64,000 nt of DNA, from IMG/VR virus record IMGVR_UViG_3300028591_000013, positions 1 through 64,000 of that record, one strand, 5' to 3'. The stretch comes from a virus. Lineage: Duplodnaviria > Caudoviricetes. The translations under genes were made by a program, and so were the position numbers. Of the stretch, positions 35,844-61,351 are shown in pieces. The notes under the pieces are model-generated. The model saw only the letters and a program-made list of their open reading frames with translations, was not told the origin of the DNA and did no database searches. The number at the start of each line of letters is the position of its first letter. Position 1 is the stretch's first letter.

Positions 35844-35991
35844 TTTTAAGAGTTATCTTAAAAGTGTTTGCATCCTCAATTAGTTTGTTGATTTCTTTTA
35901 CAGCTTTGTTAAATTCGTACTTAGCTATATAAAGACTTCCTACTAGACCAATTAATGTTCCCATCAGGGAACCTATTACACATGTTATCAT
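35833..35991 (-). CDS. Small membrane protein, 52 aa
   Basis: MITCVIGSLMGTLIGLVGSLYIAKYEFNKAVKE…; fills the gap between primase and endonuclease; below the ORF-track cutoff. Confidence 0.5.
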   Translation of the reverse strand: MITCVIGSLMGTLIGLVGSLYIAKYEFNKAVKEINKLIEDANTFKITLKNEI

Positions 35992-36961
35992 ATCTTTCTA
36001 CTGTTTTAGTTAACCAATCCTTTACAGCAAAGAACCCGTTAGCTTTAACAGCATCGGATACGTCCTTTGCTTTAAACTTTTTATGAACAAATATAGCATC
36101 TAGCTTATATTGCTTACTATACTGTCTAGCATTCTTCATACCAGCAACATCTCTGTCATATAGTATGATGATATGCTTCCATTTACTTCTCAGAGATTGA
36201 AGCGTGTCATCGGGTATGAAAGTAGTTTCGCTACTCGAAGATATTGCATTAAAACCCATTTCATATAGGCACATTACGTCTTTTAAAGATTTAGTAATAA
36301 TCAAAAGATTTCCACCGTCAGGATTCAGTTGTTCTAAACCTTGTACATGGCGCACGGTTAAGTTTGTCCTCCATTTAGTATACTTACTTGCTAGTGGTCG
36401 ATATATTTTAAACTTATCAAACACTTTGTATGCATACATAGGATTATCTTCTTTGTATACTCCTCTGACAATACTGTTGCAGAGAAAATACTTAATACTA
36501 AACACATTAAAATGACGCAACGTGTCTATTGAAATATGGAACTGTTTCCAATAGGCTTTATCAACCTCTGTAAATGGTTGACGAACTATTCCGATATCTG
36601 TTAGCCCTGAATCCACCGTTTTTACGTATTTTGGTTTAACCTCACCGCTCATCGGATTCATTTTTCGGACGATGCGTAACAGCTCTCGTTCAAGCTCTTC
36701 ACGAGTCTGTATTCCTTTATAAAGCTTCATAAACTTTATAGCGTTTCCAGACTCTCCAGTCCCATGATCCTTAAATAACAGATCTCCAGTCTTGCTAGGA
36801 AATATAGCGAAACTGGGGATCTTATCGTCTGGGCGCAAGGGACTGTTCATAAGTTTTCCAGGCTTAAATGAGCCTAAATAATAAGCATAGATGTCATAGT
36901 CGCTCACTTTCTCCAACAAGTCTCTAAGACTCATTGTGATAGCTGTTTTTGTACTATACAT
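35921..36961 (-). CDS. DNA primase (DnaG-like, TOPRIM)
   Basis: SPLRPDDKIPSF…FKDHGTG N-domain; IITKSLKDVMCL…LYDRDVAG…KDVSD TOPRIM. Confidence 0.85.
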   Translation of the reverse strand: MYSTKTAITMSLRDLLEKVSDYDIYAYYLGSFKPGKLMNSPLRPDDKIPSFAIFPSKTGDLLFKDHGTGESGNAIKFMKLYKGIQTREELERELLRIVRKMNPMSGEVKPKYVKTVDSGLTDIGIVRQPFTEVDKAYWKQFHISIDTLRHFNVFSIKYFLCNSIVRGVYKEDNPMYAYKVFDKFKIYRPLASKYTKWRTNLTVRHVQGLEQLNPDGGNLLIITKSLKDVMCLYEMGFNAISSSSETTFIPDDTLQSLRSKWKHIIILYDRDVAGMKNARQYSKQYKLDAIFVHKKFKAKDVSDAVKANGFFAVKDWLTKTVERYDNMCNRFPDGNINWSSRKSLYS

Positions 36962-36975
36962 AAGCTTAAGCTTTG

Positions 36976-37055
36976 TGGGTGCCAGGTGAGATTCGAACTC
37001 ACATTTCTATACAATATTAATTATGTATAGACGTTACCATTACCTTACTGACTCC
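36976..37055 (-). ncRNA. tRNA-like element with elongated anticodon arm
   Basis: Acceptor GGAGTCAG/CTGGCACC (one mismatch); T-arm GTGAG-TTCGAAT-CTCAC; anticodon arm CTATACA-TAATTAATAT-TGTATAG. Confidence 0.6.
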
Positions 37056-37065
37056 GTATTGATTA

Positions 37066-37383
37066 TTAATAAGGAAATAATTGTTCCGGATCTCTAAAAT
37101 CTTTTAGGAGATATGGAGATACATAATATTTTCCTATTTTATAATCTGCATATTTTACTGTTTTCTTTTGTAGATAAACTTTTGTGTTTTTATCTGTTAC
37201 TGGTATTAACCACCAATAATATATATCTAAATCATCTGTTGGTTTATTTCCAAATTTAGATACAAGGTTTGGAACAATATGTTCTTTTTCGAATTCAACA
37301 TAGTCTCCACGTTCTCCGTGTACAATTCTGTTATATCCTGTAGCAAATAATGTTCCATTTTTAAGAAATATATTTTCTTTCAT
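37066..37383 (-). CDS. Hypothetical protein, 105 aa
   Basis: MKENIFLKNG…RIVHGERGDYVE…QKKTVKYADYKIGKYYVSP; start trimmed because the longer ORF runs through a tRNA-like element. Confidence 0.75.
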   Translation of the reverse strand: MKENIFLKNGTLFATGYNRIVHGERGDYVEFEKEHIVPNLVSKFGNKPTDDLDIYYWWLIPVTDKNTKVYLQKKTVKYADYKIGKYYVSPYLLKDFRDPEQLFPY

Positions 37384-37386
37384 ATT

Positions 37387-37468
37387 TGCGGAGTTGGGCG
37401 GATTCGAACCACCCATATAACAGTTTGGCAACTGCCATATTGCAAACCTGCGTACATGTACAAACTCC
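37387..37468 (-). ncRNA. tRNA-like element (GCC-containing loop, long D arm)
   Basis: Acceptor GGAGTT/AACTCC; T-arm GGGTGG-TTCGAAT-CCGCCC; anticodon arm GGCAG-TTGCCAAA-CTGTT (8-nt loop). Confidence 0.55.
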
Positions 37469-37476
37469 TTAATTTT

Positions 37477-37767
37477 TTAATCTAATTCTGATATCAACTT
37501 TTTTACAACATCGTCCATTATAACATTAGTGATTTTATTTCCGTTATATAACATTAATGTGCACAGATAGAGATTGTGTTCATTCAAATAATGATGTGCT
37601 TCTATCTCTTTCCAAGTATCATCTATTACTATTTCTCTAATGTGTTCTGTTACTGCTATAATTTCGCTTTTTTTAACATGCGTAAATGTTGTTATAAATT
37701 GAATATCGCGCTTCTGGTTAACTGAAGCTTCTTTTACAGCAAATTGTAATCTTTTTAATGTTACCAT
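37477..37767 (-). CDS. Hypothetical protein, 96 aa
   Basis: AT-rich ORF between two tRNA-like elements. Confidence 0.65.
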   Translation of the reverse strand: MVTLKRLQFAVKEASVNQKRDIQFITTFTHVKKSEIIAVTEHIREIVIDDTWKEIEAHHYLNEHNLYLCTLMLYNGNKITNVIMDDVVKKLISELD

Positions 37768-37792
37768 ATTGATTATGTTTAAAATTAATAAT

Positions 37793-37873
37793 TGTAATCA
37801 GATGGGGAATCGGACCCCACAATCCGTCAACTATCTTGTAGTTGACCGTCATAACCTCTAGACTACTGATTTC
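37793..37873 (-). ncRNA. tRNA-like element with 7-8 bp anticodon stem
   Basis: Acceptor GAAATCAG/CTGATTAC; D-arm GTC-TAGAGGTTAT-GAC; arm GTCAACTA-CAAGA-TAGTTGAC; T-arm GTGGGG-TCCGATT-CCCCAT. Confidence 0.6.
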
Positions 37874-38612
37874 CAGAAAGTACTTTTACCATATTGAAAT
37901 TCTTGCAAGTATAATTAATAATTAAACCATAGTGTCGTTTAACCCACTACTATTACAATTACCTGGCCGCTGCTGTATAAACTCAGATTTCAACGATTTC
38001 TTCATTGTAACAACATTATTAATTAAATTTCAACTTAGGCATTCTTATCAGATACATCTGAATAGAATGTGAGGGTATTCAATGTATTTCCCTCATATCT
38101 CCTATATACTCTCTACACATTTATGAAAACTATTCTACAATTATAACTTCCACCTTGACCTTATCCTCGAAGTCGTTTTCAATTTAGCACGGTATTATCC
38201 TTACACATTATTGGTTAGTGCGTTTTTCATAAGCGATTGGGCATCTTTGTGTTCCAATGTAACTTCAACTTATTACTCTTGCTTAAAAGGACTTCCACCG
38301 TTTTAGGGAGATTCTACTATGGGATTTCTCGCCATAGCAACAACGACAAAGAAGTTTGTTAGGGGCTGACCGGATAGTTGTGATACGTGTACTTCGAACT
38401 TAATCTACTTATCTCCGCATCCTTTTCAACTCCAATCAGTCCTCCACCACTGACCATTGCGTGTGATTAGAACGATAAAGTTATATTCTCACACTTAATA
38501 ACTGAATGACGTTCTTTTTATTGGTTGTCAGCACCATTGACTGTTTGTTCTAATCTAATCGCCAGCAATACACTTTCGTGGGCTGTCAACGTGCGAATAT
38601 ACGCGTATTAAA

Positions 38613-39212
38613 TTAGAAAGGCAGGTCGTCAGCACCTGTAGAGTCTGCAGTCACCGGAGCACTGTTACCAGCGAGCGGGTCGTTAGGCTTCTCAACGTCA
38701 GCCTGTACGGGACGCTCCAGAAGATCGTTCTTCCAAAGCTTAATCTGCGACTCTGTTACACTCATAGGTTCAACAAAAATACCAAGACTAGATACTTTCG
38801 TATAACCGTTCTTGTCGTAAACAACCTTAAGGCGAAGCTTCTTATTGTCGATATTCTTATACTGTTCAAGGATACCCTTAGTCCAGTTAATCATTTCAAC
38901 GAATGAAGAGCCTTCAAATTCTGGTCGTAACCCAAGACAATCGATAACTTGTAGAATACGACCAAACTGCTGATCATCACGCTTCTGAAGGTCTTCATCA
39001 GTCTTGATCCACATGTTCTTCTCGTTCTTCCACTCAGTCATTGTTGCTGTCTGGCCATTTTCATTCTCAAAGACAATCTCCAAGAAATCACGACCATTAG
39101 GAGTCTTATTTACGTTAACTTCTTTCAAAGTTACATTCTCGTTGATGCCTACAGGCATATATGAACTACTAAACTCAGTATTGTTTGTAGTTGCTGTTTT
39201 TGTACTATACAT
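38613..39212 (-). CDS. Putative single-stranded DNA-binding protein
   Basis: Acidic C-tail …TGADDLPF; directly downstream of the Sak4-like ATPase, a common pairing. Confidence 0.65.
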   Translation of the reverse strand: MYSTKTATTNNTEFSSSYMPVGINENVTLKEVNVNKTPNGRDFLEIVFENENGQTATMTEWKNEKNMWIKTDEDLQKRDDQQFGRILQVIDCLGLRPEFEGSSFVEMINWTKGILEQYKNIDNKKLRLKVVYDKNGYTKVSSLGIFVEPMSVTESQIKLWKNDLLERPVQADVEKPNDPLAGNSAPVTADSTGADDLPF

Positions 39213-39225
39213 AGTTCCTTAAATT

Positions 39226-39972
39226 TTATTCAGGTTTATAAACTTTATCCCAGTATGTTGTTATACTTCCGTCTTCATTTCCAGTGGCAATGACGATGTC
39301 GCGTCCCGCAATGTGACGGGCTCTTGCTTCCATAATAGTGCCGTCGCCCCCAGATTTAAATGATATATGTGTTTCATTATCTTTTCGGTAAACGTATCCA
39401 ACGGCATCTGCCATTCCACATACAATTTTTCCGAGTTTCCCAACAAGGTCAATTTCTTTTGCGTTGACCTCTTGGCCATCTTTGTCTGTGATACTGTCTT
39501 TGACATGCCCTATGAGAATAAACTCATCACAGAGATCCTTGAACATATCAATCACCTTCTTCACTGCTGTTCGAAGATAACCATATCCAGCACCGCGAGC
39601 AAGCGTTGTTACATCTGTACCTTTCCAGTTTTTACCTAGTTCGGTTTGACGATACAACGTACAAGCATAACTCATACAAATATCCTCTAGACGAGTTGCA
39701 TTATCAATTGTTATATGTTTATAAAATTTACGACCAGCTTCGTCATTTTTAGCTCGAATAGCCTGAGCAATCTGACCAAGGTCTTCTATCGTGCGTGCTT
39801 GTACAGCCATTGCATCAATAAAAGTAGAACCTCCTTCGAGGTCTATAATCAAATTGTTAGGTATCTGAGCTACGCAGCTGGTCTTTCCTGATTTAGGCAA
39901 ACCGTACAGTATCAAATACTGAGGGTTTACCGAGGTCGCAGGAACCGGTTGTGTAGGTAGTACTAAGCTCAT
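39226..39972 (-). CDS. Sak4-like / AAA_24 ATPase (recombination)
   Basis: LILYGLPKSGKT, IIDLEGGS, ITIDNAT, GAGYG, ILIGH motifs. Confidence 0.85.
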   Translation of the reverse strand: MSLVLPTQPVPATSVNPQYLILYGLPKSGKTSCVAQIPNNLIIDLEGGSTFIDAMAVQARTIEDLGQIAQAIRAKNDEAGRKFYKHITIDNATRLEDICMSYACTLYRQTELGKNWKGTDVTTLARGAGYGYLRTAVKKVIDMFKDLCDEFILIGHVKDSITDKDGQEVNAKEIDLVGKLGKIVCGMADAVGYVYRKDNETHISFKSGGDGTIMEARARHIAGRDIVIATGNEDGSITTYWDKVYKPE

Positions 39973-53398: not shown

Positions 53399-53475
53399 TG
53401 CGCCAATACCAGATTCGAACTGATATATACATACCCTAGGATACGTATGTTTTGCTCTATTAAACTAATCGACTC
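53399..53475 (-). ncRNA. tRNA-like element with CUA at the tip of an elongated anticodon arm
   Basis: Acceptor GAGTCGAT/ATTGGCGC; D-arm GTTT…AAAC; arm TACGTAT-CCTAGG-GTATGTA; T-arm ATCAG-TTCGAAT-CTGGT. Confidence 0.55.
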
Positions 53476-54712: not shown

Positions 54713-55010
54713 AGATGCAGGCACTTAGGTAGCCTGCTCACCGACTTCACGCTGCCTCCTTGAGGCCCGTGTAGTCAACGATGTTCATATCGCCGTTTAA
54801 TTTTATGTCAAAGCGCTTAATGTCTTTACTTCCTTCGCCCGTCAAAATCCTGTCGAGCCCGGAATGCCCACATGAGGCCTACGAGTGGGCTGCGTAGATA
54901 GTCACCCCTTATTCGCTCTATGTGACAGATAGAACTCGGGACTTGCCGTGGACCCGGAGGGATTCGAACCCTCGTCCGAACGAAATACCTCAGACACGCT
55001 AAGATTTCTT
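54713..55010 (-). ncRNA. ssrA: Circularly permuted two-piece tmRNA
   Basis: Acceptor piece (…GGACGAGGGTTCGAATCCCTCCGGGTCCA, ends 54949) lies upstream of the coding piece (GGGCTCGACAGGATTTTGAC, starts 54860). G3·U70 and A73 present; tag frame 54794-54747 = GDMNIVDYTGLKEAA*. Outer ends approximate. Confidence 0.88.
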
Positions 55011-60576: not shown

Positions 60577-61351
60577 ATGTTTAAGTTTGAATTGATTTCT
60601 GTTAAAAACGGTGAGAGTGCTACCGCTGTAGCATAATCATCATGAGTTCTTTGAATATGAGTAAAATTGCGTACTGATATACTCTCTCACCGCTGTGATT
60701 GTTCCTGAAACAATCTATTCACCTAAAAACAACTAAATGTGGTTTCTACAAAAAGGGAGAGCATATCTGAAAGCCCAGATTATGCCCTCCACACGCGTGC
60801 TCGGTCTTATGTACAACTCAGACCGACTAGTTTGCATGTATCCCATGACTTCCATGCACTCACAGTGTTCCGACTCCTATTTTCAAATAGCGAGTAACTG
60901 TGTGTTTTGTGCATATTCCAATTGTTTTATGCACATCCCACAATATTTGGACTATCTACGTACGATAGTAATTGTGGGTTTTGGTGAACGCACGTGTAAT
61001 TCACCTGTTTCAGCATCCAGATAATGATTTTTCACATTTCTTTTTCGACCATATTGTAGCTGAATACATTTGTGGACGGATTTTCTTGGTCACCGTCTCA
61101 CGATAATCCATCAGAGGCTGTCTCTCCCCACATAGCGTGACTTAAGGAATATGTGGTAAGTGTGATGGATTAAAAATTTGAGCGTTTCAGTTTATCTTAC
61201 GCACAACTTGAACAGTATCTCTTTTCAGGCCTATTTCAAGAGTTCCTTCTGTTCACGCCAGGCCGTTAAACATATTACTGTTTCGTCTCAATTTTCAGGG
61301 ACTCATCAGGAGCTTTGGTGGGCTCGACAGTGTAGCAGTTTAGACACTTGC

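Follow-up and report, generated by a model that had tools for sequence, protein, structure and literature searches.

Conserved, covarying tRNA-like elements upstream of the primase gene in a Crassvirales phage: candidate RNase P/Z processing signals

The first 64,000 nucleotides (nt) of the phage recorded in IMG/VR as IMGVR_UViG_3300028591_000013, hereafter the window, belong to a 103,568-base-pair (bp) genome with direct terminal repeats, whose replication genes match Crassvirales, family Suoliviridae, subfamily Oafivirinae. On the minus strand of the window, in the early replication operon and between a gene resembling that of the single-stranded DNA-binding protein (SSB-like gene) and the primase gene, three elements resembling transfer RNAs (tRNAs), designated A, B, and C, are interspersed with two small genes encoding 96 and 105 amino acids (aa), in the order element A, 96-aa gene, element B, 105-aa gene, element C, primase. 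Comparison with related phages supports the view that A, B, and C are functional, selected tRNA mimics and not decaying tRNAs. It is further proposed, tentatively and as the reading that we favour, that they are non-decoding mimics which, in the manner of plant mitochondrial t-elements, serve as cutting signals for ribonuclease (RNase) P and RNase Z. An earlier examination of the letters without database searches (the sequence-only reading) had described three tRNA-like elements alternating with small genes on this strand, and all three were recovered:

37794-37873, minus strand: tRNA mimic A, identified by its fold, an Rfam score of 24.0 bits, and covariation
37388-37468, minus strand: tRNA mimic B, identified by the z-score of its fold and covariation
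36977-37055, minus strand: tRNA mimic C, identified by its fold, an Rfam score of 27.8 bits, and covariation

Each element retains an acceptor helix, a D-type loop containing GG, and a T arm, and in each the decoding arm is a closed hairpin, of 8 bp with a 5-nt loop in A, 11 bp with a 4-nt loop in B, and 7-8 bp with a 10-nt loop in C. A canonical anticodon arm, with its 5-bp stem and 7-nt loop carrying U33, was found in none of them. The canonical combination of a 7-bp acceptor and a 5-bp T stem was also missing, A and B being built as 6 + 6 and C as 7 + 5 with an A·A mismatch, and the stack of acceptor and T stem came to 12 bp throughout, as 6 + 6 or 7 + 5. All three had the elbow signature (a D loop containing GG and a T loop of the UUCRA type), with a C at position 55 in the window's A. 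At the 3′ side, the discriminator is followed by a C and the CCA is not encoded, a context identical to that of the phage's genuine tRNAs. The non-canonical status previously assigned to the elements was confirmed with annotation tools: ARAGORN at default settings called none of the three, and the Rfam tRNA model (RF00005), with a curated threshold of 29 bits, gave 27.8 bits at 36978-37054 (C), 24.0 bits at 37795-37872 (A), and no match for B. We know of no described tRNA with a 6-bp acceptor plus a 6-bp T stem, as far as a non-exhaustive search of the literature goes.

Element A comprises a 6-bp acceptor, U8-A9, a D arm like that of tRNA-Glu, and the extended arm GTCAACTA/TAGTTGAC (8 bp, with the 5-nt loop CAAGA), beyond which come a variable loop of 5 nt and a T stem of 6 bp. 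In the window, its T loop reads UCCGAUU (37810-37816, minus strand), placing a C at the usual, near-universal U55; this C55 also occurs in three relatives (L008, L134, and L139), and most relatives have UUCGAUU. Element C has a 7-bp acceptor, a D arm with GG, the arm CTATACA/TGTATAG (7-8 bp, with the 10-nt loop UAAUUAAUAU), and a normal 5-bp T stem. The abnormal stems of A and C thus correspond to those reported by the sequence-only reading, as do the two A·A mismatches near the acceptor end, which were located at -1/73 (or 1·72) in A and at 2·71 in C. For the middle element, the same reading had described an 8-nt loop and a long D arm, and this had to be replaced: both the folding energy (z = -4.0) and the covariation assign to element B an acceptor of 6 bp (GGAGUU) followed by a pair of 3-bp mini-hairpins, an 11-bp hairpin closed by the loop GCCA, and a T stem of 6 bp, with G as the discriminator.

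The elements recur in related Oafivirinae phages, for which 80 related loci were fetched through the primase protein and extra copies through DNA patterns; sheep, goat, and other rumen or gut samples were the source of the related contigs and of the sequencing runs in which the phage occurs. In family A, represented by 27 distinct sequences, 93.5% of the pair cells were paired and 10 of the 25 pairs were altered on both sides (30 cells), values reached by none of 500 shuffles, and registers slid along the same sequences were only 28-55% paired. The three inner pairs of the extended stem, invariant in the first 14 sequences, did vary once all 27 were considered: pair 34-44 is C-G in 24 sequences and U-A in 2, pair 35-43 is U-A in 26 and C-G in 1, and one relative (L133) has UCA/UGA where the window's A has CUA/UAG. 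This relative, together with the covariation of the inner pairs, indicates that the extended stem is a selected helix and that the CUA triplet is not a conserved anticodon. The sixth T-stem pair of the family was G-C or G·U in 27/27 sequences. Smaller samples were available for the other two elements. In family C (6 distinct sequences), four pairs were altered on both sides, including two of the long arm, a result matched by 1 of 500 shuffles, and family B (4 distinct sequences) had 97% of its cells paired, with three doubly changed pairs, namely the outermost and the seventh of the 11-bp arm and one in the first mini-hairpin. Mean pairwise identity was 89% for A, 85% for B, and 95% for C; over the initial 900 nt of primase, these genome pairs were 77-78% identical. 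A model built from family A (R1) scored element A at 105.7 bits, and the nearest non-member was a canonical tRNA-Glu at 30 bits; when the family-A pattern was searched in 185,579 prokaryote genomes, the sole match was an irrelevant tRNA fragment in an archaeal metagenome-assembled genome (MAG).

These data bear directly on whether the elements are tRNA genes decaying after loss of function, an explanation that is now very hard to sustain. It would account for Rfam scores lying just below the tRNA threshold, for the canonical tRNA-Glu as the nearest relative of family A, and for the canonical tRNAs that stand at the same place in other phages. Decay is opposed by a mean identity exceeding that of primase (85-95% versus ~77%), by the pairing of 93.5% of cells across 27 sequences with 30 doubly changed cells and none of 500 shuffles as extreme, and by the 6-bp T stem, which recurs across no fewer than 11 unrelated families but is absent from every ARAGORN-called tRNA. 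The sequence-only reading had already argued from the well-paired stems that simple decay was not the cause, and the compensatory changes, which affect each helix and reach the inner pairs of the extended stem, bear this out together with the conservation above that of primase. It had also linked a pseudogene interpretation to two observations, canonical tRNAs at this place in relatives and extended stems without covariation; the former do exist, whereas the stems covary, and hence "simple pseudogenes" fails as a description.

A second possibility is that the elements have kept a decoding function, acting as atypical suppressor or Leu tRNAs, or becoming competent once a short insert has been removed from the loop. 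It draws on the CUA in the arm of family A in a phage whose late genes use TAG as sense, and on the proposals of ARAGORN at lowered thresholds, Leu(AAG) or Cys(ACA) with a 4-nt "intron". However, the CUA is paired with UAG inside the stem and is replaced by UCA/UGA in L133, the genome carries its own tRNA(CUA) at 72102-72178 with the loop CUCUAAC and an encoded CCA, and we know of no short-intron splicing system in bacteria. In addition, the anticodon stem does not exceed 6 bp in known active tRNAs, and their loop remains 7 nt long (PMC7609411); continued decoding is accordingly considered highly unlikely. The specific idea of a masked amber suppressor, with CUA hidden by UAG, was rejected because of the UCA/UGA relative and the genome's own tRNA(CUA). 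Runs of ARAGORN with introns or lowered thresholds returned Leu-AAG, Cys-ACA with a 4-nt intron, and Ile, which are mutually inconsistent and uninformative.

Other RNA features of the genome were observed alongside. The amber suppressor tRNA lies on the plus strand beyond the window, has atypical D and T loops, and was missed by ARAGORN even at lowered thresholds; ~130 nt upstream of it, also beyond the window, is a 60-nt element made of an acceptor plus a T arm (G000:C1:71913-71972, plus strand). Within the window, the minus strand has a fourth unusual tRNA-like element at 53401-53474, called neither by ARAGORN nor by Rfam, whose 7-bp arm carries the 8-nt loop UCCUAGGG containing CUA. Two sub-threshold matches were recorded on the minus strand, one to a permuted transfer-messenger RNA (tmRNA) at 54747-54997 (38.9 bits versus 47), beside a tRNA-Met and reported by ARAGORN as a permuted tmRNA with the tag GDMNIVDYTGLKEAA, and one to the Hammerhead type III ribozyme model at 61275-61333 (37.1 bits versus 48.5, E = 2e-4). 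The late genes, on the plus strand at 2649-32913, are open only when TAG is read as sense, with open reading frames (ORFs) of 5069, 2246, and 1462 aa; the early minus-strand genes do not need this reading.

The place occupied by the elements is a hypervariable slot with conserved borders. Among 53 close relatives, all of which have the SSB-like gene (53/53), its distance to primase ranges from 160 to 2281 nt, and the 1651 nt of the window are among the largest. A strict scan for a T loop, a T stem of at least 5 bp, and an abutting acceptor of at least 6 contiguous pairs was applied to the 2.3 kb before primase in the 80 loci, and it returned 60 elements, belonging to 33 sequence families; dinucleotide shuffles gave 0.35 ± 0.65 and the opposite strand gave 1. 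ARAGORN called 12 of the 60 (Leu-UAA, Gln, Trp, Glu, and Lys), every one with a normal 5-bp T stem. The T stem was 6 bp long in two-thirds of the 48 uncalled elements (32/48), and these 32 come from at least 11 unrelated families. A T stem of this length was never seen among the ARAGORN-called tRNAs of the slot. Some members, of only 42-45 nt, are "top halves" that lack a lower half: an acceptor of 6 or 7 bp, a GG-containing linker of 10 nt, and a T stem of 5 or 6 bp plus loop make up the whole element. Further members have a single hairpin (59-67 nt) or bigger insertions (84-117 nt). A less stringent inspection revealed elements in most of the loci that were empty by the strict scan; in L004, L022, and L025, neither the strict scan nor this inspection detected an element before primase. 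In the 1.65-kb stretch of the window, a loose acceptor-plus-T-arm scan found 3 elements where ~0.1 were expected; since this loose scan is not specific genome-wide (10 matches versus 7.5 in shuffles), the element counts rest on the strict scan.

True tRNAs (Leu-UAA, Gln, Trp, Glu, and Asn) fill the same pre-primase place in other relatives. The leader CAAAGCTT(AAGCTT)ATG, which in the window starts at the 3′ end of element C, precedes primase in the relatives whichever element stands upstream, and an element, whether canonical or non-canonical, nearly always lies immediately upstream of it. Of the 51 non-canonical elements compared across relatives, 33 have their 3′ end no more than 30 nt before the following ORF. 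In L001, 23 nt from the 3′ end of C appear to be duplicated; this was rejected as a target-site duplication, since the apparent copy is a further, more degenerate tRNA-like element before primase.

This slot also provides the grounds on which the elements might be regarded as DNA-level homology anchors for the swapping of accessory cassettes between co-infecting phages, a role that had been suggested for them from the sequence. BLAST blocks of 84-87 nt with 93-98% identity coincide with the elements, their flanks are unrelated, and primase is ~75% identical between the same phages; moreover, one element may stand upstream of differing ORFs, and one ORF downstream of differing elements. Nevertheless, the compensatory double changes (10 pairs in A, 4 in C, and 3 in B) indicate selection on the RNA fold and not on DNA identity, and the flanking SSB-like and primase genes already supply homology for exchange. 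Recombination anchoring therefore describes a consequence seen in the data without explaining the selection at the RNA level, and as the function of the elements it is improbable.

The remaining features of the locus, from the left border of the hot spot to the right, are the following:

38613-39212, minus strand: SSB-like gene, with a weak match to PHROG 378; conserved left border
37874-38612, no strand assigned: ORF-free tract upstream of element A, distinguished by RNA-contig depth and modular conservation
37477-37767, minus strand: 96-aa accessory gene, identified as an ORF
37066-37383, minus strand: 105-aa accessory gene with a predicted beta-tent fold, identified by homologues and an AlphaFold2 model
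35921-36961, minus strand: DNA primase gene, with a match to PHROG 12622 at 3e-31 and a Toprim domain; conserved right border

The two border genes share an identical stretch of 21 nt, TATGTATAGTACAAAAACAGC, in their start regions (36941-36961 for primase and 39192-39212 for the SSB-like gene, both on the minus strand), which codes for MYSTKTA, and they are unrelated beyond it.

The 96-aa and 105-aa genes between the elements are real genes, although neither protein had a match in Pfam or PHROGs, nothing useful came from the protein atlas, and the Pfam and PHROG searches of the neighbouring genes turned up no domain linked to defence or counter-defence. Just 5 homologue clusters were obtained for the 96-aa gene, all of 96 aa and one labelled as a Prevotella sp. 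MAG, and 120 were obtained for the 105-aa gene. The AlphaFold2 model of the 105-aa protein, with a predicted local distance difference test (pLDDT) score of 92.8, matched over its full length, at Z 5-7, Yippee/Mis18, cereblon CULT, Mss4, MsrB, and the RNA-end-binding C-terminal domains of RIG-I-like receptors; these scores are middling, yet the whole top of the match list is a single fold class, and a beta-tent fold is predicted from the model. The 105-aa gene also occurs inside genuine tRNA arrays of unrelated 164-179-kb phage contigs and of two smaller ones. In two contigs of 176-179 kb (L112:1125-1594 and L113:1125-1594), a tRNA-Trp lies 1 nt before its ATG and a tRNA-Arg 5 nt after its stop; a tRNA-Leu or tRNA-His lies 3-17 nt upstream in L114, L115, and L120, and a tRNA-His 41 nt upstream in L122. 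Its products form a small family of proteins associated with the tRNA loci of phages, and, because genuine tRNAs flank the gene elsewhere, the mimics of the window occupy positions of true tRNAs.

Within the array, the distances are short. The closeness of the 3′ ends to the next start codons, remarked on by the sequence-only reading, was measured as 27 nt (A), 5 nt (B), and 16 nt (C) from the discriminator base to the next ATG, and the stop codons of the two small genes are followed by an element after 8 and 10 nt. No terminator-like site was found inside the array. Tight packing of this kind, lacking an internal terminator-like site, would suit the reading that we favour, in which the elements are RNase P/Z cutting signals. 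According to the proposed mechanism, A, B, and C would be transcribed within one long early-operon RNA and would keep the features read by RNase P, RNase Z, and the CCA-adding enzyme, namely the 12-bp stack, the elbow, and, after the discriminator, a C and no encoded CCA. Each element would be cleaved by RNase P at its 5′ end and by RNase Z just past its discriminator, so that an upstream non-coding RNA would be freed and the 96-aa gene, the 105-aa gene, and primase would each receive their own message with a leader of 5-27 nt. Architecture, conservation, covariation, and interchangeability with true tRNAs were established by comparing the sequences, and from them we infer cleavage of the transcript at the elements. 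The processing-relevant half is what all members have in common, down to the top halves of 42-45 nt found in the same slot, which would further support this reading. The elements also have the tRNA-like fold, the conserved T arm, and the position at gene borders of a polycistronic unit that characterise t-elements. Among the three roles put forward by the sequence-only reading, RNase P/Z punctuation appears to fit the anatomy best. The excised RNAs of 76-80 nt probably matter in their own right too, because the lower halves are also under selection.

Transcript data came from six sheep-gut metatranscriptome runs that contain parts of the stretch as assembled contigs, which were aligned to 35900-39300. 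The summed RNA-contig depth was 6,000-70,000 over 37885-38410, ~15-60 over primase, and 0-8 over the small genes, indicating that the ORF-free tract is an abundant RNA. The depth falls more than 1000-fold at ~37885, which is where contigs of other strains diverge, so that this fall carries no information on cutting at element A. One RNA contig ends at 37789, 4-5 nt past element A; no second study ends there, and no inference was drawn from it. Depth over the elements themselves was low, and small structured RNAs are usually lost from such libraries. The core of the tract (~38076-38375) consists of invariant blocks around two hypervariable inserts closed by stems, with long-range pairings such as AUCUCC/GGAGAU and modular conservation in 5-6 relatives. 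It had no match in Rfam, and the ROOL and GOLLD models did not match it even at E up to 10. A tRNA mimic follows the tract within ~150 nt in L017, L048, L051, and the window.

Several points weigh against cutting signals as the whole explanation. The expression evidence consists of assembled contigs, which are blind to ends and strand. The lower halves are conserved and covarying, which a pure cutting signal does not need, since the smallest members do without them. In L004, L022, and L025, no element was detectable before primase, which implies that primase expression does not depend on one. Finally, the reading presupposes that the RNase P and RNase Z of Bacteroidota accept a 6-bp T stem combined with a 6-bp acceptor.

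The selection on the lower halves is where a different role comes into consideration, one that is possible but that we think less likely than processing. The excised RNAs could be decoys or inhibitors for host factors that recognise the top half of tRNA, for instance immune nucleases binding the acceptor stem, T arm, and CCA tail, and their closed lower arms would make them ribosome-inert and resistant to anticodon-loop nucleases. Each would-be anticodon loop is indeed closed or shortened, the hot spot turns over fast as arms-race genes do, with its 33 element families and many small ORFs, and phage tRNAs are known to counter tRNA-cleaving defences (PMC10264068, PMC11555353). On the other hand, a partner was not identified and the neighbouring genes lack defence or counter-defence domains in Pfam and PHROGs, a substrate decoy would have to compete with the entire cellular tRNA pool, true tRNAs can substitute at the same site, and RNA-contig depth over the elements is low, though the libraries concerned usually lose small structured RNAs. 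Any decoy role would be directed at enzymes recognising the top half of tRNA, not at anticodon nucleases. A more specific proposal, which is somewhat doubtful, is that the elements form a class of counter-defence RNAs, in which top-half mimics with a 6-bp T stem would be freed by RNase P/Z and bind or sequester host immune enzymes that recognise the acceptor stem, T arm, and CCA tail, such as the Bacteroidota Cas12a3 nucleases, while the closed, covarying lower arms would avoid the ribosome and anticodon nucleases.

A function for the small tRNA-like RNAs of phage tRNA clusters has been lacking since species 1 and 2 of T4, and standard annotation ignores such RNAs. The present locus offers a large natural series, running from true tRNAs through cloverleaf mimics to top halves of 42-45 nt, at one position before an essential gene in a phage group abundant in gut and rumen. 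Because this graded series stands at one defined position, the question becomes testable. If the elements are cutting signals, crAss-like phages would organise their early gene expression by tRNA punctuation, and if they are decoys, they would represent a new RNA-based counter-defence against tRNA-targeting immunity. In either case, the statement "no tRNA found" in such genomes conceals many tRNA-derived genes. A literature search found no paper describing such elements in Crassvirales; two tRNA-like loci with low scores are listed as "pseudogene" in a recent preprint that deals with a different amber-recoded crAss-like phage.

Among known systems, plant mitochondria have t-elements, which guide RNase P and RNase Z to cleave at the ends of mRNAs; once excised, such an RNA can be stable and can gain a non-templated C or CA (PMC1920247, Forner et al. 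2007). The t-elements resemble the phage elements in their non-canonical cloverleaf, in the T arm that is kept, and in their location at mRNA 5′ or 3′ ends within long transcripts. However, t-elements are organellar, whereas the phage elements are known from sequence and have covarying lower halves, many 6-bp T stems, and dozens of families in one hot spot. Phage tRNAs that evade anticodon nucleases (PMC10264068) are also phage-encoded, reside in the same kind of locus, and are changed in the part that nucleases attack; in contrast to the 8-11-bp stems and 4-, 5-, and 10-nt loops of the present elements, they keep the 5-bp stem and 7-nt loop and decode. Likewise, tRNA-Pyl, tRNA-Sec, and mitochondrial tRNA-Ser(UCN) share a longer anticodon stem and shifted arm junctions, and tRNA-Pyl also has CUA, but their stems reach at most 6 bp and the 7-nt loop is kept (PMC7609411). 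As for the ORF-free tract, it has only its context (phage, rumen, beside tRNAs) in common with ROOL and GOLLD RNAs (PMC5737381).

The position of element A, right after this very abundant tract, recalls a eukaryotic arrangement, although the link between tract and element A is positional only. In MALAT1, with its mascRNA, and in MEN-beta, a tRNA-like module follows an abundant non-coding RNA, and the RNase P cut at the 5′ end of the module makes the 3′ end of that RNA. Those modules differ in being eukaryotic and nuclear.

The species 1 and 2 RNAs of phage T4 (rnaC and rnaD) are likewise small stable RNAs of little-known function among phage tRNA genes. T4 rnaC has a terminal T arm, CCGGG-UUCGAAU-CCCGG, a closing helix, and long hairpins that replace the decoding arm, and the segB ORF of T4 is wedged 5 and 41 nt from tRNAs, with the tRNA-like stable rnaC beside it. 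The T4 RNAs differ in their length of 119-139 nt and in lying next to eight working tRNAs. The phage elements described here likewise lie in a phage tRNA locus and combine a T arm and closing helix with the lack of an anticodon loop, which is an architectural likeness and not a shown homology. Thus, the kind of RNA is already known from T4 species 1 and 2, t-elements, and mascRNA, and what is new is the 6-bp T stem joined to a 6-bp acceptor, the extended covarying closed arms, the graded series down to bare top halves, and the fixed pre-primase position in a hypervariable slot.

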